Shown piece after piece: positions 1,226 through 13,171 of a DNA stretch of 64,000 bases. The stretch's first letter is position 1, and every line of letters begins with the position of its first letter. The DNA is from Fibrobacteria bacterium (GTDB lineage Bacteria > Fibrobacterota > Fibrobacteria > UBA11236). Location: assembly GCA_043745805.1 (NCBI GenBank), contig JAYTSD010000045.1:134081-198080 (forward strand). Reading direction: 5' to 3'. The notes beneath the pieces were generated by a model. That model was not told the DNA's origin and did no database searches. It saw only the letters and a program-made list of their open reading frames with translations. The position numbers were made by a program, and so were the translations under genes.

Positions 1226-2602
1226 TTAACTCTCTTCGTGAAAATCAATTTTTGCATCCGCATGCACACTGAAACTTCCCTGTCCATTGATTACGATATG
1301 TAAACCAATTTTTTGTGTTTCTAATTTTGCTTTTAAACGATATAAGCGAATTTCAAAATTTGGTTTCTTTTGTCCGGCTAAAAGATTTTGATCTTTTTTG
1401 AAACTGCGATATTCAAATTCCTTTTTGCCTTTGTGAATCAATTCAATTAAAATATTGCGTAGTATTTTTGCAGAAACCGTTTTTAAAAAAATTTTTCCAT
1501 TTAAAATGAGTTGTACTTCTTGAGGTCGATAAATAAAAACAATATTCGCTTCAAGCTGACTAATTAAATTTTGATGCTTGCGCATTAATGCTCCAGCAAA
1601 AATCTTTTCATGTTGTGCCGCATCTTCGACTAAGTGCTTGAGAAATAGGCCATTTTTTAACTGGACTTTTTGATGCTTAACACAAGTCATGTATATAGGA
1701 GCGCTGTATACACACTGGGCGTGGAGCAATATGCGCTGGCGTAAGGGGCAGAAAAAATCCTTTTCCATAAGGATTACTTGCGCTGCGGGAATTTTATATT
1801 TCGCTAAGCTTAACTCATGGCTTTTTAAAAAATCAGTGAAGGCTATTTTGTGACCGTAACATTCACCGTTTATCCATAATTGTTGACCTTTAACGCGTAC
1901 GGAATGATCGGGTAAAATATTATTTATAGAACGAATATCAGATAAATATTGCAACTGTGCAAAAGGCGCCAAGCCTAAAATTTTGGGAGCTTTTAAAATT
2001 TGGGGGCCGACTACAAAATCAAAATTAAAATTAAAGGCATGGGTAAAGGTTTTGTCGGGAATATAAACTAAATAGGATTGTACTGATTTTTTTCCCTCCA
2101 CCTTTTTTACGCGGCGATGAATATGCCCTGGCAAATATTTTTCCGTACACACCGAAATCAAATCAAAAACCATATCATGTGTATCCGTGGCATTGAAGGC
2201 CTTTTGCATCAAGGGATAAAACCAAGCTAAAATTTCTTTACCAGGAAAATAGGTAGCGGCATTATTTCGATAAAGCAGTTTTTCTATGAATTTATTTGGA
2301 GAAACCCCCTTGCTGATTAAAAAAGGTTCCAAATCATTGACCACATAATAATTCCATCGCAATGGAATTTTTCCTTCACAGTGCCAAAGAAAATGCAGCA
2401 GCTCGGCGCCAATCAATATTTTATCGGGATAAACAATAGGGTGTGCTTCCCAAAACTCTAAAATCCATTCCCGTGGAAATAATTGCAACATAGTCACATA
2501 CGAGGCGCGGTGAAAATCGTGAATGGTTAAGGGATCCTGCATGAGATAGCGGGTTTGTTCAAGGGGCGCTTCGTTATCTATCAGCAGTGCTTCTTTGATC
2601 AT
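1226..2602 (-). CDS. putative transcriptional regulator: uncharacterised N-terminal domain plus C-terminal winged-helix-like domain (paralogue of 2617-3969)
   Basis: 458-aa ORF with GGAAAG RBS-like element. C-terminal KILRNIL..EFEY..NFEIRLYRLKAKLE..GQGSF pattern resembles an OmpR/PhoB-like wHTH. Collinear similarity to the neighbour (WFYPLM, FNFDFV, CPLR.RI.L). Confidence 0.6.
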   Translation of the reverse strand: MIKEALLIDNEAPLEQTRYLMQDPLTIHDFHRASYVTMLQLFPREWILEFWEAHPIVYPDKILIGAELLHFLWHCEGKIPLRWNYYVVNDLEPFLISKGVSPNKFIEKLLYRNNAATYFPGKEILAWFYPLMQKAFNATDTHDMVFDLISVCTEKYLPGHIHRRVKKVEGKKSVQSYLVYIPDKTFTHAFNFNFDFVVGPQILKAPKILGLAPFAQLQYLSDIRSINNILPDHSVRVKGQQLWINGECYGHKIAFTDFLKSHELSLAKYKIPAAQVILMEKDFFCPLRQRILLHAQCVYSAPIYMTCVKHQKVQLKNGLFLKHLVEDAAQHEKIFAGALMRKHQNLISQLEANIVFIYRPQEVQLILNGKIFLKTVSAKILRNILIELIHKGKKEFEYRSFKKDQNLLAGQKKPNFEIRLYRLKAKLETQKIGLHIVINGQGSFSVHADAKIDFHEES

Positions 2603-2616
2603 AGGAGTTGCTTTCC

Positions 2617-3969
2617 TTAACCTATTTCGCGGAAATCGATTTTCCGATCACAGATTAAAGTAAAAGTTCCGCGTCCATTTTTCACTATACTTAGGCCTAA
2701 TTTTTCTTGGTCGAGTTTTTCCATTAGGCGATAAAAACGGATTTCAAAATTGGAATTTTTTTGGTGGTTGGATATTTCAAAATCGGCTTTGAACTCTTTA
2801 TACTCAAATTCAGTTTTACCCTCGCGAGTATAGGCGAGAAGAATATCCTTTAAAATTTTGGCGGGGGTATTTTTTACAAAATGTTTTCCATTGAGGGATA
2901 AACTTTGATCTTGAGCATGATAGAACGCACGTATTTTATTTTCTAATTGCTTTACTAATTCCCCATGTTTTTTTTCCAATTCACTTTTGGAAAAGGATTT
3001 TTCTAAATCGGCATCTTCAACCAAATGTTGTAAGAAACTGATTTTTTTCTTTTGCAACTTATGATGTTGCATGCAAATCATGTATAGCGGCGCACCATAA
3101 GCGCAATTGGCATAGAGGACAATGCGTTTGCGGAGTGGACAATAATAATCTTTGTGCAAATGAAATACTTCGGCATCGGGCGCATCAATTTTGCCTAAAT
3201 CAATATCCAATTTTTTCAATAAAGCATAAAAAGTGGTTTTTTTGCCAATCCAATCCCCTTCGACATAGCAATCCGAGCCTTTATATTCGGCCTTTCCGGT
3301 CCATAGTACATCGTCTACGGTGCGTGTATCGCAAATATATTCAACGTTATTAAAAGCAGGCAAAGAAAGAATCTTGGAACTGGATTTGAATTGTTCTCCG
3401 GCCACAAAATCGAAATTAAATTTTACCATATTGCTAAAATTTTTATCGCTACAATAAACCAAATAAGAATGTACCACATTTTCTTTTTCAACTTTTTTGA
3501 CACGGCGACTTATATGTTGCGGTAATAATTTCGAGGTAAAAATATCAATCAGTTTATAAGCCATATCCCAAATATCATAGGCATTAAATACTTTGCCCAT
3601 AAGCGGATAAAACCAAGACAGTATAGTTATACCTGGGATATACGTAGCTTGATTGTTACGGAAGAGAATTTTTTTAATGAAGCTATTTCCGTAAATACCT
3701 TTGGAAATTAAAAAGGGTTCAATAGCGTCACCCGTGGTATAATCCCAAGTGACAGGGACTTTATTATTCGCTTGCCATAAATGCTTAACTAATTCATCAT
3801 CCGCAATGAGGTGTGTGCCCTCTTGAATAGGATATGCAGACCAAAACTCTTCCAGCCAATCCAATGGAAACTCAGCCAGCATGGTAAGATAAACGGAGCG
3901 TTGAAAATCATTAGTGGTTTTTAGCTTTTTATAAGCATTAGTCCATTTATTAATGAGCTGTTGTCCCAA
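2617..3969 (-). CDS. putative transcriptional regulator: uncharacterised N-terminal domain plus C-terminal winged-helix-like domain
   Basis: 450-aa ORF, TTG start with AGAGG RBS. Tail KILKDILLAYTREGKTEFEYKE..NFEIRFYRLMEKL..KNGRGTFTL. Confidence 0.6.
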   Translation of the reverse strand: MGQQLINKWTNAYKKLKTTNDFQRSVYLTMLAEFPLDWLEEFWSAYPIQEGTHLIADDELVKHLWQANNKVPVTWDYTTGDAIEPFLISKGIYGNSFIKKILFRNNQATYIPGITILSWFYPLMGKVFNAYDIWDMAYKLIDIFTSKLLPQHISRRVKKVEKENVVHSYLVYCSDKNFSNMVKFNFDFVAGEQFKSSSKILSLPAFNNVEYICDTRTVDDVLWTGKAEYKGSDCYVEGDWIGKKTTFYALLKKLDIDLGKIDAPDAEVFHLHKDYYCPLRKRIVLYANCAYGAPLYMICMQHHKLQKKKISFLQHLVEDADLEKSFSKSELEKKHGELVKQLENKIRAFYHAQDQSLSLNGKHFVKNTPAKILKDILLAYTREGKTEFEYKEFKADFEISNHQKNSNFEIRFYRLMEKLDQEKLGLSIVKNGRGTFTLICDRKIDFREIG

Positions 3970-4095: not shown

Positions 4096-4761
4096 TTAAA
4101 ACTTGGCGAAGTAAATTAAGCCTAAAACCAAATTCAAATACTCTTCACTTTTGTTTTCTAAGTCCAATGGCTTATTAATGAATTCATAAAAACGGTTGTG
4201 ACGCAAGCTTTTATACAATAAATTGCTATCGTCATCGGGATTGCCGGTGATTAAAATGAATTTCAAATAAGGTTTGGTTTTATGCACTTCATCGCAAAGT
4301 TCATTACCTCCCATAAGAGGCATAACTTCATCGGTTATGACTAAAGCGACATCGGAATTAGTTCTTATAAATTCCAAGGCTTCCAATGGTTTAGTAAAAG
4401 TTTTGAGAGTTATTTTTTTGCCTAATTTGCGATTGAAAACAAAAAGATTGTCTTCTTCATCGTCGACATAAACTACGAGAGGGTTTTTATTAGTGGTAAC
4501 AAAAAGTTTTTCCAAGTGCTCCAATAGTTTTGCAACGGTAAGATAGGGAAACTCGGTTGGGTTTAAATAATTTTCCAGGTTTAAACGTTTTCCCTCATAT
4601 CGTTTTTCCAATTCATCTTTAATTTCAGAAAAGGCAACTTGATCCACACCAATATCTTCTAGAAAAACTTTATTCGTTTCGCATTCCAACAATGCGGGTA
4701 GTGTTGCGCCATTGTTTTTAAAAACATCATTTAATATTTCATATACTTCTTGTTTTGCCAT
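4096..4761 (-). CDS. ACP-like domain fused to a response-regulator receiver (REC) domain
   Basis: N-terminal about 85 aa have an ACP pattern (FLEDIGVDQV..EIKDELEKRY..TVAKLLEHL). REC motifs YVDDEE, ITDEVMP, ITG and INKP are intact. ATG at 4761 preferred over TTG at 4773. Confidence 0.75.
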   Translation of the reverse strand: MAKQEVYEILNDVFKNNGATLPALLECETNKVFLEDIGVDQVAFSEIKDELEKRYEGKRLNLENYLNPTEFPYLTVAKLLEHLEKLFVTTNKNPLVVYVDDEEDNLFVFNRKLGKKITLKTFTKPLEALEFIRTNSDVALVITDEVMPLMGGNELCDEVHKTKPYLKFILITGNPDDDSNLLYKSLRHNRFYEFINKPLDLENKSEEYLNLVLGLIYFAKF

Positions 4762-4804
4762 GAGAACCCTCAATTATTGTATGCCATCAAAATTAAACCA
4801 CAAT

Positions 4805-5980
4805 TTAAATCATTAAACTTTCAATTTTTAATTCCTTAATAGCTTCTGCGGTAACGATAGCCGTTTTTATAATAGCTTCACGAGTAATTTCGGCGTGAAC
4901 TGAAAAACGAGCAAAACTTTTATCACGCGCTGAAGCTGGAGGAGCAAATACTGAAAATAAAATTCCTTTTTCTTTCATTTTTCCATAAAGGGCGCTAGCT
5001 GTATAGGGGCCTTTAAAAAATACGGATACGATTTGACAATTACTTGGACCAGTGGGAATACCACGTTGATTCAACTCATCCCTTAAAAGTTGAGCCATAT
5101 CCATGCAATGCTGCGCTCTTTGCGGTTCCCGTAAAATAACATTCAAAGCGGCTCTGTGACCCGCAGAGTTTGGTTCAGAAGGTGAAGAACTAAAAATAAT
5201 AGAGTGACAACGAAATCTTAAAAAACGAATGGCTTGTAGGCTTGCTGCGATAAAGCCTCCATTGCCGCCAATAGCTTTGGACAAGCTAACCGTTCGAAAA
5301 GGTACTCTATCTTGTAACCCTAATGAAACGGCTAAACCACCGCCATTTTCTCCAATCATTCCAAAGCTATGGGCTTCATCTAGTACCAAGGCGCAGTTAT
5401 ACTTTTCACATAAAGCAATGTAGGTGGGAAGATCAGCAACTGATCCATCAGTGCTATAATAAGCATCGATGCAAACAATTCCCGTTCCATCTTTTTTGAT
5501 TCTTTTTTCCAAATATTCCGGATCATTATGTTTGATTAAAACAGGTCTTCCTGAAGAAAGTTTCGCACCGGACCATAATGACGCATGCGCTTGATGATCA
5601 ATGTAAATAGGCAAATCAGGTGTAGCTATTGCTTCTAATAAACCGACATTAGCGCACCAACCAGCAGTAGTTACGATTACGTCTTCGCTTTTGAGGCTTT
5701 TTTTTAATACTTCCCCAAATTTTCCATGTTCACCGGTGTCGGCTCCAAAAACCAATGAGGCTACGCTACCTGTGCCAATATTGTTATTCGCTTCATCCTT
5801 GGCTGCTATTACCTCGGGATGGCGAGACAAGCGCAAATAATCATTTTGATGTAATTCAATATAGGCTTTTGAATCTCCAGGTTGATCGAATGGATTCGGT
5901 TGATGGCCATCCATAAAATTCAACCAGTCCTCATAATGTTTGGTTAACCATGGCGTTGTATCTAAATCATCGGAAAGCAT
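4805..5980 (-). CDS. cqsA: PLP-dependent alpha-oxoamine synthase, CqsA/LqsA-like (alpha-hydroxyketone autoinducer synthase)
   Basis: QNDYLRL, AGWCANVGLL, YIDHQAHASLWSG, KHND, DAYYST, DEAHS and SLSKA (PLP Lys). The GWxANVGLL and AHxSLWxG signatures are CqsA/LqsA-like rather than BioF-like (NHASLIDG). Confidence 0.75.
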   Translation of the reverse strand: MLSDDLDTTPWLTKHYEDWLNFMDGHQPNPFDQPGDSKAYIELHQNDYLRLSRHPEVIAAKDEANNNIGTGSVASLVFGADTGEHGKFGEVLKKSLKSEDVIVTTAGWCANVGLLEAIATPDLPIYIDHQAHASLWSGAKLSSGRPVLIKHNDPEYLEKRIKKDGTGIVCIDAYYSTDGSVADLPTYIALCEKYNCALVLDEAHSFGMIGENGGGLAVSLGLQDRVPFRTVSLSKAIGGNGGFIAASLQAIRFLRFRCHSIIFSSSPSEPNSAGHRAALNVILREPQRAQHCMDMAQLLRDELNQRGIPTGPSNCQIVSVFFKGPYTASALYGKMKEKGILFSVFAPPASARDKSFARFSVHAEITREAIIKTAIVTAEAIKELKIESLMI

Positions 5981-6122
5981 GGAACGGTCCTTTTATTATC
6001 TGTATAAATGGTTTGGATTTTGTGGTTTTTTGTGTATGTGAATGAATGTCTTGCTCAAATATGCTTCCGGGCCTTAATATTGCATTTGAAGCTAGAATTT
6101 TTGGCTTTTGAGGAAAAGGTTG

Positions 6123-7682
6123 ATGCTGAGAAAATTCTTTTCGAAGGATTTTTGGAATGGCCGTTCGGAATACCACCGAATGCTTTTTAATACTGACTAT
6201 TCCTTTCAAAAACGTTTTATGATGGTACTGGTATATATAGGCGCACCAGCCAATATATTTTTTCATTACTATGAACAAGATCAAGGTTATCAAGATTCTA
6301 CCATTGGACGTTATGCTATTTCTCTGCTATTAGTTACACTAGTTTTCCTACCGAAGATTATCAAGCAAAATAAATGGCAAATATCGTACTGGGAACTCAC
6401 ACTTTTCATTTTTTTCCCATGTATGAACACCGCCTTCATGCTGATGAATCATGTTAATCAGTATTGGTTTTCCACCTTTATTCTGGATATGGTATTTTTG
6501 GGCATTTTTACCAAATGGTATATGATCCCTTTCCATTACATTTTTGGTAGTGCGGCAATAACATGGTGGTACTTTCACAATACAGGATATGATGCGAAAT
6601 TATTTCAGGCCAATTTAAATGCGCATGTGGCAGCCTTTCTAGGAACATGCGTTGCATCGGGAGTCGTTTTAACTATTGAATATGTTAATAAAAAATCTAC
6701 TGAAGCTAAATTAGCGCTATCTAAAGCGGAACATGATAGGCTCAGAACCTTAGAGCTACAAAAATCAAATGAAGAATTAAAAAAACGTGAGGAAATCATT
6801 AAGGTGTATGTGCGCCCATCCTTGTATGAAGAGTTAGCGGCGGGACATGACCCTCTCAAATTTCAACCTATTATGCTGCCTAAGGCGATTATGTTTTGCG
6901 ACATTCGCGACTTCACTTATTTGACGGAAATTCTTACCCCTTACGAAAAACAAACTTTTCTCAATCAATATTTCACTTTGATGAATCATGCCATTGTCAA
7001 TAATGAAGGCGAAGTAGATAAAATTGTGGGCGATTGTATTATGGGTCTTTTTCCTAATGGCCGCGCAGCCGTACATGCCGCATTGGCCATGCGTAAGGCC
7101 TTGCACACATTTAATAATATGATGTACAACAGTGGTCGTCGAAAAATCCCTAATGGTATTGGCATAGCCAAGGGCGAAGTGATGTTAGGCAATTTCGGAT
7201 CTAATGAAAAACTAGATCGCACGGTGATTGGTGAAGCGGTGAATATAGCTTCACGCTTGGAATCTAAAACCAAAATGTATGGTGTGGAAATTGTGGTGAC
7301 TCAGGATGTGGTCGATGAAATGCAGGGCTATCCCTATATGCGTTGGATTGACAATGCTAAGGTAAAAGGTTCGAGCCGACCTTTGCAGCTTTATGAAATT
7401 TATGGACATCAACCAGATGAAGTGATTGCCTATAAAGAAAAGACTAAAGTCATATTCGAAAAGGCTTTGACTATTTATTTCAATAAAGGTTTTAAAGATG
7501 CTTTACGCATGTTTCAATCTATGTTATCCGAGGTTCCACCGCATAAATACAAAGCGAATGCACCCATGGATAATATTCTCAGCTATTATATTGAGCATTG
7601 CCGAACTTGGGTGAATGACTCCGCAGGGGCTTGGGACTTGCGGAATAAATGGGATGGCATTCATGAGTTTAAAGAAAAGTGA
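6123..7682 (+). CDS. membrane class III adenylate cyclase with an N-terminal CqsS/LqsS-like multi-TM sensor domain
   Basis: About 6 hydrophobic segments including P..TAFMLMN-x5-W; coiled-coil linker; cyclase motifs MFCDIRDFT, VDKIVGD and DRTVIGEAVNIASRLE. ATG at 6123 follows GAGG/AAGG. Confidence 0.85.
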   Translation: MLRKFFSKDFWNGRSEYHRMLFNTDYSFQKRFMMVLVYIGAPANIFFHYYEQDQGYQDSTIGRYAISLLLVTLVFLPKIIKQNKWQISYWELTLFIFFPCMNTAFMLMNHVNQYWFSTFILDMVFLGIFTKWYMIPFHYIFGSAAITWWYFHNTGYDAKLFQANLNAHVAAFLGTCVASGVVLTIEYVNKKSTEAKLALSKAEHDRLRTLELQKSNEELKKREEIIKVYVRPSLYEELAAGHDPLKFQPIMLPKAIMFCDIRDFTYLTEILTPYEKQTFLNQYFTLMNHAIVNNEGEVDKIVGDCIMGLFPNGRAAVHAALAMRKALHTFNNMMYNSGRRKIPNGIGIAKGEVMLGNFGSNEKLDRTVIGEAVNIASRLESKTKMYGVEIVVTQDVVDEMQGYPYMRWIDNAKVKGSSRPLQLYEIYGHQPDEVIAYKEKTKVIFEKALTIYFNKGFKDALRMFQSMLSEVPPHKYKANAPMDNILSYYIEHCRTWVNDSAGAWDLRNKWDGIHEFKEK

Positions 7683-7749
7683 AAGACAATTGAAAGCCAA
7701 GCGTAATAAATTGTCAAAACCCATAAAATAAATTCCGCGCTTAACTTCC

Positions 7750-7778
7750 TTGCGGCAAATTTTTAAACATGCTACAAT
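7750..7778 (+). promoter_or_regulatory. sigma70-type promoter for sthA
   Basis: TTGCGG-17 bp-TACAAT with extended TGn, 33 bp upstream of the ATG. Confidence 0.5.
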
Positions 7779-7811
7779 GAATTATTCTGGTTTTGTATTC
7801 AGGGGATTTGA

Positions 7812-9257
7812 ATGAGTTATAAAGCAGCTCCAAAGCATTATGATTTTGTAATAATCGGTAGCGGCCCTGCAGGCCATGCGGCAGCTATTTGCGCAGCGAA
7901 GGCGGGAGTGAAAACGGCCATTATTGATAGACGCGAGCAGCGTGGTGGCGTGTGTTTACATGCAGGTACCATACCGAGTAAAACTTTACGTGAAGCGGTG
8001 ATGCATTTGCGTGGCGTGCGTTTGCGATCTTTTTATAAAGAAAAAATGAGTGGGCAAGGTCAAATTACTTTGGAAGATTTGCATGTGCGTATTGATAAGG
8101 TTTTAGCGCAACAAATGGATGTGCTGGATCATCAATTGCGTCGCAATGGCGTAGATATTTATTATGGTCAGGCTGAGTTTGAAGATGGCCATACATTGCG
8201 TTTAACCACCTTGGAAGACGGCGAAGTAGGACGCTTACAAGCCGGTAAAATTTTGGTTTGTACTGGCACGGTGCCGCGTCGCCCACCGGAAATCCCTTTT
8301 GATCAAGAAGTTATTTTCGATAGTAATTTTCTTTTTTCTTCCAAAAATAAACGCCTCAATTTGCCTGAGTCCTTAATTATTGTGGGTGCCGGAGTAATAG
8401 GGACCGAGTATGCCAGCATTTTTGGATCGCTCGGTTGCAAAGTTTGGTTGGTGGATCAACGCGATGAATTATTTCGTTTTGTGGATGATGAAATCGCTTT
8501 GCATCTCAGTAAGGATTTGCAAAATGAAGGCGTAGAATTACGCATGGGACATAAAATTGGAAAAATTTCTCGCAGTCCCTCCGGCCAAGCGCGCTTGGAA
8601 TTAGACGGTGGGGAAGTGATTGAAGCCGATGTGCTCGCTTATACCATGGGCCGCACGGCTTGTGTGGAACCCTTACATTTGGAACGCGTAGGCGTTGTGC
8701 TTACTAAACATGGCACGGTGGAAGTGAATGAAACTTTGCAAACAGGACATCCCGATATTTATGCCGCAGGCGATGTGATTGGCTTCCCCGCTTTGGCTTC
8801 CACGAGTTCTAGTCAAGGGATTATTGCCGCGCAAGATGCTTTAGGCTTGCCTGCGCCTACCAAAGCCACGATTTTTCCTTTTGCGATTTATTCCATACCG
8901 GAAATTGCCATGGTTGGTAAAATGGAACGTGAATTGGTCGCAGATAAAATTCCTTTTGCTAAAGGCGTTACGCTTTATCGAGAAAACCCCAAAGCAGCAA
9001 TTATTGGCGATGAAACCGGCGCGGTGAAAATTCTTTTTTGTCCAGACACACATAAAATTTTTGGTATTCATATTATTGGAGACTTGGCTTCGGAATTAAT
9101 TCATATCGGTTTAATGGTAATGAGTTTGGATGGCACGGTGGATACTTTTGTGAATAATGTATTCAATTATCCCACTTTAGCTTCCGCATATAAAATGGCT
9201 GCACGCAATGGCTTAAATAGTTTGGAAGGAAAGAATACCACAAGGGATATTAGCTAA
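7812..9257 (+). CDS. sthA: soluble (Si-specific) pyridine nucleotide transhydrogenase
   Basis: GSGPAG FAD motif; GGVCLHAGTIPSK (single Cys, no redox disulfide); GAGVIGTEYA; VFNYPTL. Confidence 0.9.
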   Translation: MSYKAAPKHYDFVIIGSGPAGHAAAICAAKAGVKTAIIDRREQRGGVCLHAGTIPSKTLREAVMHLRGVRLRSFYKEKMSGQGQITLEDLHVRIDKVLAQQMDVLDHQLRRNGVDIYYGQAEFEDGHTLRLTTLEDGEVGRLQAGKILVCTGTVPRRPPEIPFDQEVIFDSNFLFSSKNKRLNLPESLIIVGAGVIGTEYASIFGSLGCKVWLVDQRDELFRFVDDEIALHLSKDLQNEGVELRMGHKIGKISRSPSGQARLELDGGEVIEADVLAYTMGRTACVEPLHLERVGVVLTKHGTVEVNETLQTGHPDIYAAGDVIGFPALASTSSSQGIIAAQDALGLPAPTKATIFPFAIYSIPEIAMVGKMERELVADKIPFAKGVTLYRENPKAAIIGDETGAVKILFCPDTHKIFGIHIIGDLASELIHIGLMVMSLDGTVDTFVNNVFNYPTLASAYKMAARNGLNSLEGKNTTRDIS

Positions 9258-9320
9258 GGATAATGATTTCGCTTTTAAATAGTTGTTCCTAATTTGGCCT
9301 AAAGTATTTATATTAAGCAA

Positions 9321-9443
9321 GCTCATCCTGTGAGGTTTAGGCCTCACGCAATGAATGCGAGCAGAATTCCGCCAGGACGAAAGTAGCAACGGTACGCATC
9401 AATTTCATGTGCCGTGTCAAAGCTTAAAAGTAGCAGGGTGAGT
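9321..9443 (+). ncRNA. ffs: signal recognition particle RNA (small bacterial SRP, 4.5S type)
   Basis: Helix-8 motif GCCAGG-AC-GAAA-GT-AGCA at 9371-9388. Terminal stem GCTCATCCTG/CAGGGTGAGT followed by a T run. TATATT -10 at 9309. Confidence 0.88.
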
Positions 9444-9445
9444 TT

Positions 9446-9994
9446 TTATTTACTGAGCGAGATGCCAGTTAAAGCCGCGAATTCTTCCAAAGACAATAAA
9501 GTATCTTCTGCATCCATTCTTTCGGAATATAAAATGCCTTCTAAATGATCGTATTCATGTTGGAATATGCGGGCAATAAAATCATGATAAGTGGTATGAA
9601 TTTCTTCGCCATGGCGTGTGGTAAAAGTCACTTCAATTTCCGTATGCCGAGGCACTAAGCCGCGATAACCCGGAATGCTTAAGCAACCTTCCCAGTCTTT
9701 ATGAATTTCCCCTGCTTGGCGAATAATATGCGGATTAATAATAGCCATAGGTTCCATAGTGGGACTATCGGGATAACGTGAACTGGGTTTGGGCGCAAGA
9801 ATAAAAACTCTTAATGAATTTCCTACTTGCGGTGCGGCAATGCCGACACCCATATTTTCATCACCACTACGAATAAGTTCGTCAATAAAATTTTGGAATT
9901 CGGGATCGGTATAAACTTCTACAGCCTTAGCCTTTTGTTTTAAAACTTCGGCGCCACGGGTGTATATGGGGAGTGATGGTTTTGCTGATTCCAT
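9446..9994 (-). CDS. def: peptide deformylase
   Basis: GVGIAAPQVG, EGCLS and QHEYDHLEG motifs. Confidence 0.95.
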   Translation of the reverse strand: MESAKPSLPIYTRGAEVLKQKAKAVEVYTDPEFQNFIDELIRSGDENMGVGIAAPQVGNSLRVFILAPKPSSRYPDSPTMEPMAIINPHIIRQAGEIHKDWEGCLSIPGYRGLVPRHTEIEVTFTTRHGEEIHTTYHDFIARIFQHEYDHLEGILYSERMDAEDTLLSLEEFAALTGISLSK

Positions 9995-10110
9995 GAAATA
10001 ATGATAATTGATTTTTTTTGCGTGGGCTAGTAGGAATATGCATTGAACAAGGTAACAATTCCCCGGTTACCACCCGAACTCTGGGGAACGTCCAAATATT
10101 ATTATGCTCA

Positions 10111-10147
10111 TTAAAGCCCCTAAATACTATACTCTAGGGGGCTTTAA
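10111..10147. repeat. inverted repeat in the def / MFS divergent promoter region
   Basis: TTAAAGCCCC(TA)...(TAG)GGGGCTTTAA; a second weaker TTCCCC..GGGGAA stem lies at 10059-10088. Confidence 0.5.
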
Positions 10148-10175
10148 AAACCGAGTGATGTGGAGAACTTAAAGC

Positions 10176-12038
10176 ATGTTTAAACTTTTAATTCAAAAAC
10201 GATTCGGACCTTTTTTTGGTGTGCAATTCTTAGGCGCATTAAATGACAACCTGTTTAAAAACACCATGGTTATTCTGATAGCCTTCCGAGCGGCCACCGA
10301 GGCGGAATCGGGCATGTTGATTAATTTAGCGGCGGGATTATTTATTCTCCCATTTTTTCTTTTTTCAGCGGTTGCAGGTCAAATTTCCGATAAGTTTGAG
10401 AAGTCTGCTATTATGCGCATGATTAAGGCAGCGGAAATTGGAATTATGTTCATTGGTGCCGTGGGTTTTTATACCGGCCATACGGCGCTTTTATTTGTGA
10501 CGCTTTTTTTAATGGGCGTGCATTCTGCATTTTTCGGTCCGGCCAAATACAGTATTCTTCCTCAGCATCTTGAAGAGCGTGAATTGACCAATGGCAATGC
10601 CTTGGTGGAGCTGGGAACATTTTTAGCCATACTCATAGGTACTTTAGCCGGTGGACTTTTGGCAGGTAAGCAAAATGTAATGGCCATATCAGCTTCCATT
10701 ATGGGCGTGGCTATTGTGGGTTATTTAGTATCCCGAAAAATCCCTCTTGCGCCGGCTATGGATCCCAAACTAAAACTGAATTGGAATTTATTCAGTGAAA
10801 TGGCTTCGCTCACGCGCATCATCAAAAAAAAGGATTCCATTTTTAATTCCATTTTGGGTATTTCTTGGTTCTGGTTTTTTGGAGCCACCTTATTAGCGCA
10901 ATTGCCAAATTTTACGCGACATATGCTGCAAGGTAATGAATCCGTAGTAACCGTTTTGTTGGCCGTATTTTCTGTTTCAGTGGGAATCGGCTCCGTAGTT
11001 TGCGCCAAACTTTCACGTGGAGAAATTGAACTGGGACTCGTTCCCTTGGGCGCATTAGGCATGACATTTTTCCTCGCTGATCTTTCCTTTATTAATTATC
11101 CACCCAGCGCCGAAATCTTAATGGGTGTGAAAGCCTTATTCTCTGGGCCTTATGCAGGCGCGGGCATTCGCGCGATGGTGGATTTGGGCATGGTGGGGAT
11201 ATTCGGCAGTTTATTTATTGTTCCATTGTATGCTTTGATTCAACATCGGTCGGATGAAGAAACTCGCTCACGCGTGATTGCCGCCAATAATATTTTTAAT
11301 GCAGTGTTCATGGTTGTTTCCGCATTAATCACCATGTTACTTTTTAAAATTGGTTTCAATACTGTGCAAATCCTTTTATTTACCGCCATTTTGAATTTGG
11401 TTGTGAGCGCTTATATTTTTCTTTTGATTCCTGAATTTGCTATGCGCTTTGTGGTGTGGATTTTAGCGAGTACTATTTATCGAATAAGTTATAGCCAGCG
11501 ATCGAATATACCACGCCATGGGCCTGCGGTAATTGTCTGTAATCATGTTAGCTTTATTGATTGGTTTGTCATCACAGCGGCATGCCGTCGTCCCGTGCAT
11601 TTCGTGATGGATAATAGCATGTTTAAAAATCCCGTGTTGGGTATTTTTTTCCGTCTCTCTAAAGCCATTCCTATTGCTTCCGCCAAAGAAGATCCGGCGG
11701 TTAAAGAAAAAGCTTTCGAATTGATTTCGAGAGAGTTAAAAAATGAAAATCTCGTTTGCATTTTCCCCGAAGGAAAAATCACGCATGATGGAAACATGAA
11801 TATTTTTCGTCCTGGCGTAGAACGTATTTTGACTCAAGATGCTGTTCCTGTCTTGCCTATGGCTATTCAGGGATTATGGGGAAGTTTCTTCAGTCGCAAG
11901 CGGGGACATGCGATGTCGGGCCTCCCTAAACCCACAAGACGCAATTTAACCATTGCCATTGGCACTCCATTAACACCACTTACAAAAGCCTCGGAGATGG
12001 AAGTAACCGTTAAACAATTATTGCAGTCCATAGCATGA
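10176..12038 (+). CDS. MFS transporter (LplT-like) fused to a PlsC-type acyltransferase
   Basis: About 12 TM MFS domain (GALNDNLFK, AFFGPAKY); C-terminal NHVSFID (HxxxxD) and FPEG motifs. Confidence 0.9.
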   Translation: MFKLLIQKRFGPFFGVQFLGALNDNLFKNTMVILIAFRAATEAESGMLINLAAGLFILPFFLFSAVAGQISDKFEKSAIMRMIKAAEIGIMFIGAVGFYTGHTALLFVTLFLMGVHSAFFGPAKYSILPQHLEERELTNGNALVELGTFLAILIGTLAGGLLAGKQNVMAISASIMGVAIVGYLVSRKIPLAPAMDPKLKLNWNLFSEMASLTRIIKKKDSIFNSILGISWFWFFGATLLAQLPNFTRHMLQGNESVVTVLLAVFSVSVGIGSVVCAKLSRGEIELGLVPLGALGMTFFLADLSFINYPPSAEILMGVKALFSGPYAGAGIRAMVDLGMVGIFGSLFIVPLYALIQHRSDEETRSRVIAANNIFNAVFMVVSALITMLLFKIGFNTVQILLFTAILNLVVSAYIFLLIPEFAMRFVVWILASTIYRISYSQRSNIPRHGPAVIVCNHVSFIDWFVITAACRRPVHFVMDNSMFKNPVLGIFFRLSKAIPIASAKEDPAVKEKAFELISRELKNENLVCIFPEGKITHDGNMNIFRPGVERILTQDAVPVLPMAIQGLWGSFFSRKRGHAMSGLPKPTRRNLTIAIGTPLTPLTKASEMEVTVKQLLQSIA

Positions 12039-13171
12039 AACAAATTAAACCTATGAAACCTATACAACACATTAAATTTTTCCTTCGCAGCATTTTAATT
12101 TTAGGTGCAATTCATGGCGTGCAAGCAAAAGCGCCAGCCACTCCTCAAAGCTGGGCTTTTGTACCGATTTTAATTTCTAATGCAGAAACCGGTGTGCAAG
12201 CAGGCGCGCTGGTTATGCACTTTTTAAATCCCTCCGATAGCTTAAATAAACCCTCTACTATTGGTTTTGCGGCAAGGATTTCCCAAAAGGCACAGATAGA
12301 AATAAATTTTTTTCCGGAATTGTATTTACAACAAAACCTTTATCATATCACGTCCAATCTTAAGTATATCCGTTGGCCCGCCGATTTTTATGGCATAGGA
12401 AATGGCACGGATATTCTCAAGGATAGTGCGGACGCTTATTTGGCACAAGGAGTAGATGGGGATTTAACCCTAGAGCGCACATGGTTTAAAAATTTTTCGG
12501 CAGGACCGCAATTACTAGCAAAGTATGAATTTATTAATCCCAAAGGCAAGCATGGTTTATTAACACCCAATGTGCAAGGGCAAGAAGGCGGCACAACGGC
12601 TGGGCTCGGAATGGTGATGACTTATGATGCCCGTGATGCGATTTATTGGGCGCGACAAGGAACTTTTTTGCGATTTAAAAATGCCTATTATCGCAATGCT
12701 ATGGGCAGTGATTTTGATTATGAAAGTTATACTTTAGAAGCGCGGCAATTCATTCCTATGTTCTCAACCGGCGCATTGGGTGTGTCCGCATTATTGAATT
12801 TAAAGTCAGGTGATATTCCCTTTCGTGAATTGGCGACCGCAGATGGCGATCATAATTTGCGAGGTATTGTGCGCGGAAAATATCGCGATAGAGATTTATT
12901 AGTGTTACAGGCAGAGTATAAAAGTTATTTATCGGATTATAGTTGGATCAGTCATCCTTGGTTTAAGAATCGTTTGGGTTACGCGGTATTTGCGGAAGTC
13001 GGTCAAGTGGCGCATCGAGTAGAGGATATGGATTGGAAAGAGTTTCGTCCCGATTTTGGATTAGGATTACGCTATGCACTGAACCCTTCGCAACGCATGA
13101 ATATCCGCATCGATTTAGGTTTTGTCGACGGCAGTGTGGCTCCCGCTATTAATATCAAAGAAGCGTTTTAA
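12035..13171 (+). CDS. Omp85/BamA-TamA family outer-membrane beta-barrel, no POTRA domains evident
   Basis: Signal peptide; YDARD, LRG..GKYRD, G.GLRY and RIDLG motifs; terminal EAF. ATGA overlap with the upstream gene. Confidence 0.8.
   Translation: MKQIKPMKPIQHIKFFLRSILILGAIHGVQAKAPATPQSWAFVPILISNAETGVQAGALVMHFLNPSDSLNKPSTIGFAARISQKAQIEINFFPELYLQQNLYHITSNLKYIRWPADFYGIGNGTDILKDSADAYLAQGVDGDLTLERTWFKNFSAGPQLLAKYEFINPKGKHGLLTPNVQGQEGGTTAGLGMVMTYDARDAIYWARQGTFLRFKNAYYRNAMGSDFDYESYTLEARQFIPMFSTGALGVSALLNLKSGDIPFRELATADGDHNLRGIVRGKYRDRDLLVLQAEYKSYLSDYSWISHPWFKNRLGYAVFAEVGQVAHRVEDMDWKEFRPDFGLGLRYALNPSQRMNIRIDLGFVDGSVAPAINIKEAF

Follow-up and report, generated by a model that had tools for sequence, protein, structure and literature searches.

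Introduction

Whether class III cyclases' membrane anchors, those of the nine mammalian enzymes among them, serve as receptors has remained an unsettled question for decades, and the best support for such a role has come from artificial CqsS-cyclase chimeras (PMC4821796, PMC12414865). In the engineered CqsS-Rv1625c and CqsS-AC2 proteins (Beltz, Bassler and Schultz, 2016, PMC4821796; Seth et al., bioRxiv 10.1101/694877), a CqsS-type receptor, the six-helix, short-loop design of which is described in PMC4821796, is joined to a class III cyclase. The CqsS-Rv1625c chimera is reported to be stimulated 4.8-fold by CAI-1, and thus a coupling of CqsS to a cyclase is physically possible (PMC4821796). 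In the clustering of 1616 six-helix modules by Beltz et al., a separate cluster of 56 was formed by the CqsS type, its matches to cyclase anchors being local only (PMC4821796), and a 2025 review speaks of CqsS-cyclases as synthetic proof-of-concept constructs (PMC12414865). In the full-text literature searched, supplements aside, no description of a natural CqsS-cyclase fusion was found; the fusions described there were engineered chimeras. Here, we describe a natural one, encoded in a 64,000-nucleotide stretch of DNA, hereafter called the window, from a Fibrobacteria bacterium (GTDB lineage Bacteria; Fibrobacterota; Fibrobacteria; UBA11236; GenBank assembly GCA_043745805.1, contig JAYTSD010000045.1, positions 134,081 to 198,080 of the forward strand). 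Its gene at 6123..7682 (+) encodes a predicted membrane adenylate cyclase in which a sensor module of the CqsS/LqsS family precedes a class III domain with intact catalytic residues; the gene is paired with that of a CqsA/LqsA-like synthase, and the arrangement recurs in relatives. Both the sensor module and the enzyme are of known kinds; their joining, so far known only from the bench, is accompanied here by a synthase partner. The architecture and the homology of the membrane module, taken together, are established with high confidence.

The cyclase is like the engineered chimeras in its combination of a CqsS-type six-helix receptor and a class III cyclase. Those are laboratory constructs with a cyclase of class IIIa (PMC4821796; bioRxiv 10.1101/694877), whereas the window protein is natural, is assigned to class IIIb and has a stalk and a C-terminal extension of its own. 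With Rv1625c/Cya of Mycobacterium tuberculosis and the mammalian membrane adenylyl cyclases it shares the six-helix anchor, the helical stalk and the class III domain, and it is for these proteins that the hypothesis of the anchor as a receptor has long been put forward (PMC4821796, PMC12414865). Superposition over the full length is, however, poor (7yzk_A; root-mean-square deviation 15.4 Å over 441 columns, 16% identity, by Foldseek), and the window protein differs from this group in that its anchor is of the CqsS/LqsS family and is encoded beside a candidate source of a ligand.

Domain organization

Translation from the ATG at 6123 yields 519 amino acids. The open reading frame (ORF) list also offers a TTG at 6108 as an alternative start, which would give 524, while the database copy of the protein (P0001) has 519, and residue numbers throughout refer to the 519-residue form. 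In an AlphaFold2 model made with 28 homologues (mean predicted local distance difference test score, pLDDT, 89.0; predicted template-modelling score 0.62), six membrane helices are followed by a long continuation of the sixth, a cyclase fold and a helical tail. The N-terminal tail and the six helices form the sensor module (residues 1-192; 6123..6698, +), which is delimited by the model, by hhalign and by a hidden Markov model (HMM). The helices span residues 33-53, 60-75, 84-108, 113-129, 132-154 and 158 onward, and the loops connecting them are 2-8 residues long. As read from the sequence, basic residues are found in the N-terminal tail, in the loop joining helices 2 and 3 and beyond helix 6, which fits a cytoplasmic location of both termini.

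The stalk (6699..6866, +) is formed by the cytoplasmic run-on of helix 6, ending near residue 229, together with a short helix (232-239). In the model, helix 6 is unbroken from 158 to 229. Residues of about 224-260 align with the helix that precedes the catalytic domain of OaPAC, and at least 90% of the 28 relatives share R231, P232 and S233. After the catalytic domain comes a C-terminal extension of about 88 residues (432-519; 7416..7679, +), recognized from the model and from its conservation, with helices at 432-453, 457-468, 485-498 and 503-509. In the 24 relatives that cover it the extension is 32-58% identical, mostly 51-58%, and A460, P472 and D483 are invariant.

A preliminary description of this stretch had proposed a natural fusion of a CqsS-like membrane domain to a class III cyclase, and this architecture is borne out by hhalign, by the PF00211 match and by the model. 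The strings that it quoted could all be located: GAPANIFFHYY at 6240-6272, GYQDSTIGRY at 6285-6314 and LMNHVNQYWFST at 6441-6476 in the membrane region, and FCDIRDFT at 6894-6917, VDKIVGDCIM at 7014-7043 and DRTVIGEAVNIASRLE at 7215-7262 in the cyclase. Its dotted pattern G.PA..F.YY needs correction, being one position short of the actual G-A-P-A-N-I-F-F-H-Y-Y.

A sensor module of the CqsS/LqsS family

Reference sensors were picked by means of their partner synthases. NF005526, the NCBIfam equivalog model for the alpha-hydroxyketone autoinducer synthase (CqsA/LqsA), was used to scan 400 genomes of one class; a synthase above its cut-off of 428 bits was present in 11 of them, and the flanks were examined. 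Nine sensors adjoined these synthases: seven are membrane kinases built like LqsS, and two are hybrid kinases built like CqsS. All nine have HATPase_c and HisKA, the latter falling under its cut-off of 26.9 bits in eight, and two have REC. The comparison with CqsS and LqsS is made through these nine sensors, chosen by synthase score, rather than through the named proteins of Vibrio cholerae, V. harveyi and Legionella pneumophila.

When the membrane region of the window protein was compared by phmmer with the ORFs of the synthase loci, five of the reference sensors came out on top in in-register alignments, with weak E-values for a small database (5e-5 to 0.13). Alignment of profiles gave a far clearer result. 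With hhalign, 25 modules of the window family matched the nine sensor domains with a probability of 99.4% (E = 3e-21, 148 columns), and the six cyclase-borne modules alone matched them with 98.4% (E = 8.7e-15, 170 columns), whereas 12 controls, comprising the reversed target, ten column-shuffled ones and an unrelated multi-helix family from the same loci, gave at most 0.6% and E-values of at least 0.09. The profile match to CqsS/LqsS that the preliminary description had expected is thus present. In the opposite direction, an HMM of the nine bona fide sensors matched a single protein among the 5235 ORFs of the genome, namely the cyclase (E = 4.7e-5), so that no CqsS-type kinase was found in this genome by the same search. 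Among 1012 ORFs of 34 other loci the HMM matched solely three homologues of the cyclase (E = 2e-11 to 3e-5). Judged by sequence, the membrane region belongs to the CqsS/LqsS sensor-domain family, as a member that has diverged but is statistically clear. Since PF00211 alone follows the module, with no HisKA or HATPase_c, the protein is assigned to the sensor-domain family and not to the kinase family.

Neither Pfam nor NCBIfam has a model that matches the N-terminal 200 or so residues of the cyclase, the sole Pfam match of which is PF00211 in the C-terminal half, downstream of the module. Pfam likewise has no model that matches the sensor module of the nine reference sensors, and among the best 25 NCBIfam families listed for each of 12 kinases none is specific for CqsS. 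The lack of a Pfam model is probably why fusions of the CqsS module have gone unannotated. In the PDB, searched by sequence, a reference sensor had no match and the window module had one chance match (E = 0.47), while an ESM Atlas look-up, which gives no alignment, returned unnamed clusters and generic MASE-type membrane sensor families with scores of 0.93-0.97.

Polar residues shared with sensor kinases

Residues common to the window protein and the sensors are D58 and R63 after helix 1, P99 in helix 3, N109 of an L-x-N element at the end of helix 3, W115 and T118. All 28 relatives have P99 and N109, at least 90% of them have R63, and 19 of 26 cyclases have W115. The last three of the shared residues lie in the motif LMNHVNQYWFST (6441..6476, +), which runs from the last part of helix 3 into the first part of helix 4 and was defined by alignment and column counts. 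In the reference sensors the corresponding pattern N-x5-W-x2-S has N in 9/9, W in 7/9 and S in 8/9, and N109, W115 and T118 occupy the same columns. The column of T118 holds Ser in 8/9 sensors and in 22/26 family cyclases, and Thr in the window protein.

W104 and S107 of Vibrio cholerae CqsS, which lie in helix 4 according to the helix assignments of PMC3376566, are described there as taking part in discrimination of the ligand head group. The spacing of Asn and Trp noted in the preliminary description recurs in the nine synthase-linked sensors, and its proposal that Trp and Thr stand at the positions of W104 and S107 is consistent with the helix-4 placement given in that review, the alignment being to the nine sensors and not to V. 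cholerae numbering. The likeness to CqsS and LqsS comprises the six-helix, short-loop module with an acidic residue and an Arg that follow helix 1, a Pro within helix 3 and the L-x-N-x5-W-x2-S/T motif, together with an adjoining gene for a pyridoxal phosphate (PLP)-dependent synthase of the CqsA/LqsA type. The differences lie in the output, which is HisKA-HATPase(-REC) there and a class III cyclase here, in Thr for Ser at the equivalent of S107, in the loss of many sensor-conserved positions, considered below, and in a synthase that belongs to a sister clade and scores under the family cut-off.

One module, several outputs

When the membrane region was used as the query of an exhaustive phmmer search, 32 of 1.84 billion representative proteins, the query among them, reached E <=1e-3. 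The module is borne by a class III cyclase in five of the 31 relatives, by a hybrid kinase of the CqsS architecture (HisKA-HATPase-REC) in four and by other histidine kinases in five; two have a GGDEF domain and two a PP2C/SpoIIE phosphatase, and in one the module stands behind a Ser/Thr kinase. No output domain was recognized in the remaining 12, ten of which are short (72-345 amino acids) and one of which has 644. Because the same module is carried on cyclases, kinases, GGDEF and PP2C outputs, it behaves, as far as these domain combinations indicate, as a mobile sensor unit and not as an anchor bound to one enzyme. An insensitive word-index protein search with the membrane region returned the window protein alone (1 of 658 candidates), and with a 19-sequence alignment and longer targets it returned five proteins, all cyclases.

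Catalytic half of the protein

The catalytic domain (residues 249-431; 6867..7415, +) is delimited by PF00211 (E = 4.2e-15; 56.2 bits, the cut-off being 21.9), by solved relatives and by Foldseek. Its closest solved relative in sequence is OaPAC (115.5 bits, E = 3.4e-32), followed by bPAC, CyaB and CyaC, all four being proven adenylate cyclases. A Foldseek search with the whole model gave cyclases only, and the top matches were the same proteins in the same order (E = 6e-14 to 1e-10, 25-32% identity). A single chain carries the full catalytic set, as in the homodimer type: the metal-binding D260 and D304, the adenine specifiers K300 and T367, and the transition-state residues N374 and R378. 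The Lys/Thr pair is a mark of subclass IIIb and of preference for ATP. All six residues, in FCDIRDFT, VDKIVGDCIM and DRTVIGEAVNIASRLE, align with identical residues of OaPAC and are invariant in 28 of 28 relatives, which agrees with the set of catalytic residues (metal-binding Asp, Lys/Thr and the N..R pair) first named in the preliminary description. The conserved residues thus point very strongly to an adenylate cyclase.

The likeness to these class IIIb enzymes, namely the photoactivated OaPAC and bPAC, CyaB of P. aeruginosa and CyaC of S. platensis, extends over the catalytic domain and the helix preceding it (E = 3.4e-32 to 2.7e-15). Their input is a BLUF domain or another soluble domain, whereas here it is a membrane sensor module, and the C-terminal helical domain of about 88 residues is additional in the window cyclase.

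Genes around the cyclase

Upstream of the cyclase and divergent from it lies a gene that the preliminary description did not mention, for a 391-residue, PLP-dependent, CqsA/LqsA-like alpha-oxoamine synthase (4805..5980, -), identified by NF005526, by its position in a tree and by its motifs. Its best NCBIfam family is NF005526 (289.8 bits; bioF, 229.3), and PF00155 matches it with E = 1.2e-32. It contains DEAHSFG from residue 201 and SLSKAIG from residue 232, with Lys at 235, which we take to be the His and Lys motifs for PLP binding of alpha-oxoamine synthases. In an unrooted tree of 56 rows, made with a quick search, the synthase falls in a 17-row clade that is sister (Shimodaira-Hasegawa-like approximate likelihood-ratio test, SH-aLRT, 99) to 11 bona fide CqsA/LqsA, and these two clades stand apart from the other synthase of the genome, from sequences like serine palmitoyltransferase (SPT), from PRK07505-like ones and from an 18-row gammaproteobacterial clade. 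This genome of 3.95 Mb (99% complete) contains just two genes for alpha-oxoamine synthases and a single CqsS-like module, and the window synthase and cyclase are its only adjacent synthase-sensor pair. It also encodes two class III cyclases and five domains that bind cyclic nucleoside monophosphates (cNMP).

The divergent intergenic region between the two genes is 142 bp long (5981..6122, no strand assigned; from ORF coordinates). Promoter-like sites in it number 7 against 13.1 expected and terminator-like ones 2 against 3.7 expected. It holds one 8-nucleotide inverted repeat and a half-site resembling a CRP box, and no convincing operator or CRP-type site was found in it. Of the sequencing runs listed as containing the stretch none was of RNA; four DNA runs from a single study contain it, and two of these may be its source.

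The same synthase clade is met with in other settings. In a metagenome-assembled genome of Fibrobacteria, a CqsA-like synthase of the window clade adjoins a hybrid kinase that bears the same module family (HMM E = 9e-9). At three further loci (L002:1921-4125, L003:7930-10119 and L009:2941-5295), two from Fibrobacteria/Fibrobacterota and one from Pseudomonadota, membrane-GAF-HATPase kinases of about 730-780 amino acids adjoin a pair made up of the CqsA-like synthase and a receiver; their membrane part has no match to the cyclase module, and this synthase clade may thus work with a sensor of another kind as well. At L007, L008 and L011 (about 6000-12600), synthases of the wider CqsA-like clade lie beside genes for a sulfotransferase, DUF1254/DUF1214 proteins, a short-chain dehydrogenase and an AMP-dependent ligase. 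This context looks like a sulfonolipid-type or other lipid pathway and not like signalling, and therefore membership of the clade is by itself no proof of a signalling role.

Next to the synthase is the gene for a receiver protein of 225 amino acids (4096..4773, -; PF00072, E = 5.3e-10), which consists of an N-terminal domain of about 95 residues and a receiver domain. Its phospho-acceptor set, D104, D105, D148, T176 and K201, is invariant in 21 of 21 homologues; despite this, no kinase gene was found in the window cassette by the ORF list and Pfam. A second copy lies 3.4 kb before the start of the window (L093:8033-8734, -). Across the family the receiver proteins have 224-234 amino acids, and their conserved N-terminal domain of about 95 residues reads like the helix bundle of an acyl-carrier protein. 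The latter reading was rejected, as the PP-binding domain was found in 2 of 21 members with a best E-value of 0.079 and there is no attachment Ser, DxGxD being followed by V, I or Q.

Farther on is the gene for a 450-residue protein (2617..3969, -), for which no match was found in Pfam or NCBIfam. It is listed as a possible one-component regulator on the basis of a model of medium confidence (pLDDT 71.6, 5 sequences) and of structural likeness: the C-terminal part resembles the OmpR-type winged-helix DNA-binding domains of SaeR and BaeR (probability 0.99-1.00), and the larger N-terminal part is weakly like H-NOX (probability about 0.9, TM-score about 0.47). If the model holds, the protein may act as a one-component regulator with a hydrophobic ligand. 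A tandem paralogue of 458 amino acids (1226..2602, -) is 47% identical to it over 431 residues (E = 2e-147), and a third copy of the family lies on contig C1 of the genome. The 450-residue protein is kept at the end of the cassette in L070, in L072 (two copies) and in L081 (a fragment).

Distribution among relatives

Relatives were collected at 23 loci with 25 further cyclases, giving 26 cyclases together with that of the window; flanks of 0-7 kb per side were examined, several of them ended by contig ends. The cassette is present at 11 of the 23 loci and consists of a receiver gene convergent with the cyclase gene, the cyclase gene, a divergent synthase gene, a second receiver gene and sometimes the gene for the 450-residue protein; at one of the 11 it is rearranged. 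The related loci that bear it are apparently from Fibrobacteria. Compared with the window protein, the membrane module of the 25 relatives is 21-37% identical, and the catalytic domain is 61-69% identical in 24 and 45% identical in one. At one locus, just past the cyclase gene, is a gene for a 606-residue protein that weakly matches an N-acyl amino acid synthase domain of the FeeM type (L001:11117-12937, +; E = 3.7e-6), which is possibly another lipid-signal enzyme.

The module was found in 15 of 61 related genomes, the window's own included. It occurs in 14 of the 31 genomes of the same family, where one genus accounts for 12 of 15, and in none of the 29 from four other families of the class. 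The tallies over the 61 genomes include one unpublished genome, G425, which enters no other part of the analysis. The module occurs together with the receiver protein in 14 of them and alone in one, and the receiver occurs alone in four; such kin are not independent of each other.

A proposed model of signalling

The window protein is predicted to be a homodimeric class IIIb cyclase whose membrane part comes from the family that in CqsS and LqsS senses alpha-hydroxyketone or amino-ketone autoinducers. In the model that we propose, the divergent CqsA-like synthase would make a lipid-like amino- or hydroxy-ketone, which would partition into the membrane and bind near the periplasmic ends of helices 2-4. 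A putative site is placed there because D58, R63, N109, W115 and T118, shared with the kinases, lie in this region. Binding would cause a conformational change that passes down helix 6, which continues unbroken into a cytoplasmic helix of about 35 residues, and would alter the pairing of the two catalytic domains and thereby the synthesis of cyclic AMP (cAMP), in the direction of either activation or inhibition. The cAMP would then act through some of the five cNMP-binding proteins of the genome. Overall, this would be quorum sensing of the CqsA/CqsS type in which the phosphorelay is replaced by direct output of a second messenger.

We infer, rather than observe, that the product of the neighbour is the ligand, since the synthase has been swapped among three clades while the membrane module shows no corresponding change; where the ligand binds and in which direction it regulates have the same standing. 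Three readings fit the swaps: the different enzymes may make similar long-chain ketones, the receptor may be tolerant, or the product of the neighbour may not be the ligand. That three clades of synthase have been recruited to one and the same divergent position speaks for a functional link of the cyclase to the product of the synthase and to this chemistry. On balance we favour, with moderate confidence, the view that a ligand made by the neighbour regulates the cyclase through the membrane module. A wider picture, which we put forward tentatively and hold to be slightly less likely than not, is that a sediment lineage, apparently of Fibrobacteria, has a quorum-sensing-like system and reads a lipid amino- or hydroxy-ketone signal directly as cAMP by means of a CqsS-type receptor-cyclase, with no phosphorelay, and has both synthase-linked receptors, the synthase being exchangeable among three clades, and a clade of 'solo' receptors without a synthase.

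Weighing the alternatives

Several observations weigh against control of the cyclase by a ligand from the neighbouring gene. The window module taken alone reached a probability of 84% in hhalign against the nine sensor domains (E = 7.5e-6, 142 columns). It is identical to the sensors at 9 of the 35 columns conserved in at least seven of the nine, against 18 of 35 for the family majority; neither the P-Q of the sensors' first loop nor the G-F-P of their helix 1 is kept, the Phe of helix 6 (9/9 sensors, 20/26 cyclases), the helix of the specificity residues F162 and C170 of CqsS, is Leu, and the Asp between sensor helices 4 and 5 (8/9 sensors) is replaced by a Lys that is invariant in 26/26 cyclases. 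The synthase, with 289.8 bits against the cut-off of 428, is not a CqsA equivalog, and the partner synthases of the relatives belong to three clades: CqsA-like (the window and two loci), SPT/BioF-like (seven loci; best match NF047600 with 338-349 bits, under its cut-off) and PRK07505-like (two loci). Partner type does not cluster on the tree of the membrane module, requiring 10 changes against a mean of 11.1 after shuffling and being as low in 48 of 200 shuffles, so that co-diversification of synthase type with the module tree is unsupported by this test. The orthologous cyclases L080:7477-8994 and L081:7034-8551, from two related genomes, are 77% identical in the module and 94% in the catalytic domain, yet their partner synthases are 26% identical; L080:9372-10586 is CqsA-like and L081:5600-6883 is SPT/BioF-like, a non-orthologous replacement. 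Fourteen of the 26 cyclases have no synthase in the flanks examined, eight of these forming one clade (SH-aLRT 98), and the two receiver proteins, which are constant in the cassette, could be the true regulators.

Two rival explanations draw on these points. The module may sense a lipid or the state of the membrane, or a signal of other organisms, the synthase making a structural or storage lipid and the cyclase reporting lipid homeostasis instead of cell density. The three synthase clades at one position, one of them like SPT, the partner type that does not follow the module tree, the clean swap beside orthologous cyclases and the clade of eight synthase-less cyclases all accord with this explanation, which we nevertheless consider unlikely, since the window partner is in the CqsA-like and not in the SPT-like clade, the cassette otherwise holds receiver proteins and a putative regulator with no further gene of the sphingolipid type seen, and the filling of the same divergent position by three clades argues for a tie between product and cyclase. 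Alternatively, the module may be a mere anchor or dimerization device inherited from a sensor ancestor, control being exerted by the receiver proteins or by the C-terminal extension. The receivers do flank the cyclase with their phospho-acceptors kept in 21/21, they accompany the module in 14 of the 61 genomes, against one with the module alone and four with the receiver alone among kin that are not independent, the extension is 51-58% identical in most relatives, and many sensor-conserved positions have been lost from the window protein. However, the retained R63, P99, N109 and W115 (19/26) are the positions most conserved in the sensor kinases and would be needless in a mere anchor, and the window cassette has no kinase gene; this second explanation is accordingly improbable in our view.

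The remaining rivals concern the two halves of the protein themselves and have far less to recommend them than regulation through a sensing module. That the likeness to CqsS/LqsS reflects hydrophobic composition and a convergent six-helix design and not common descent might be argued from the low pairwise identity, from the direct phmmer E-values of 5e-5 to 0.13 in a small database, and from the report of Beltz et al., which leaves remote homology and convergence undecided for other cyclase anchors (PMC4821796). The reversed, shuffled and unrelated membrane controls fail, however (at most 0.6% against 99.4%), the true matches are in register over 148-170 columns with common polar motifs, and the nine-sensor HMM singles out proteins of the cyclase family; by these comparisons convergence appears to be largely refuted already and is very improbable. 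It is similarly hard to credit that the catalytic domain is a guanylate cyclase or is catalytically dead. PF00211 spans adenylate and guanylate cyclases alike, but the Lys/Thr pair and the other four catalytic residues are identical to those of OaPAC, the six are invariant in 28/28, and the nearest solved proteins are mostly adenylate cyclases, the sole guanylate cyclase listed under E = 1e-15 being Cya2 (2w01, E = 3.6e-17).

Implications

In this locus nature has made the same join as the artificial chimeras, with a candidate source of the ligand 142 bp away. At least 25 relatives with natural variation and a set of conserved polar membrane residues that can be mutated provide handles for testing, and with the natural join, the nearby candidate ligand source and the relatives at hand, the receptor hypothesis becomes testable by an expression-and-assay experiment. 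If the wider picture given above is true, a six-helix anchor would be shown for the first time in a natural class III adenylate cyclase to act as a receptor for a ligand, and the finding would widen signalling of the alpha-hydroxyketone type beyond Proteobacteria and beyond two-component output.

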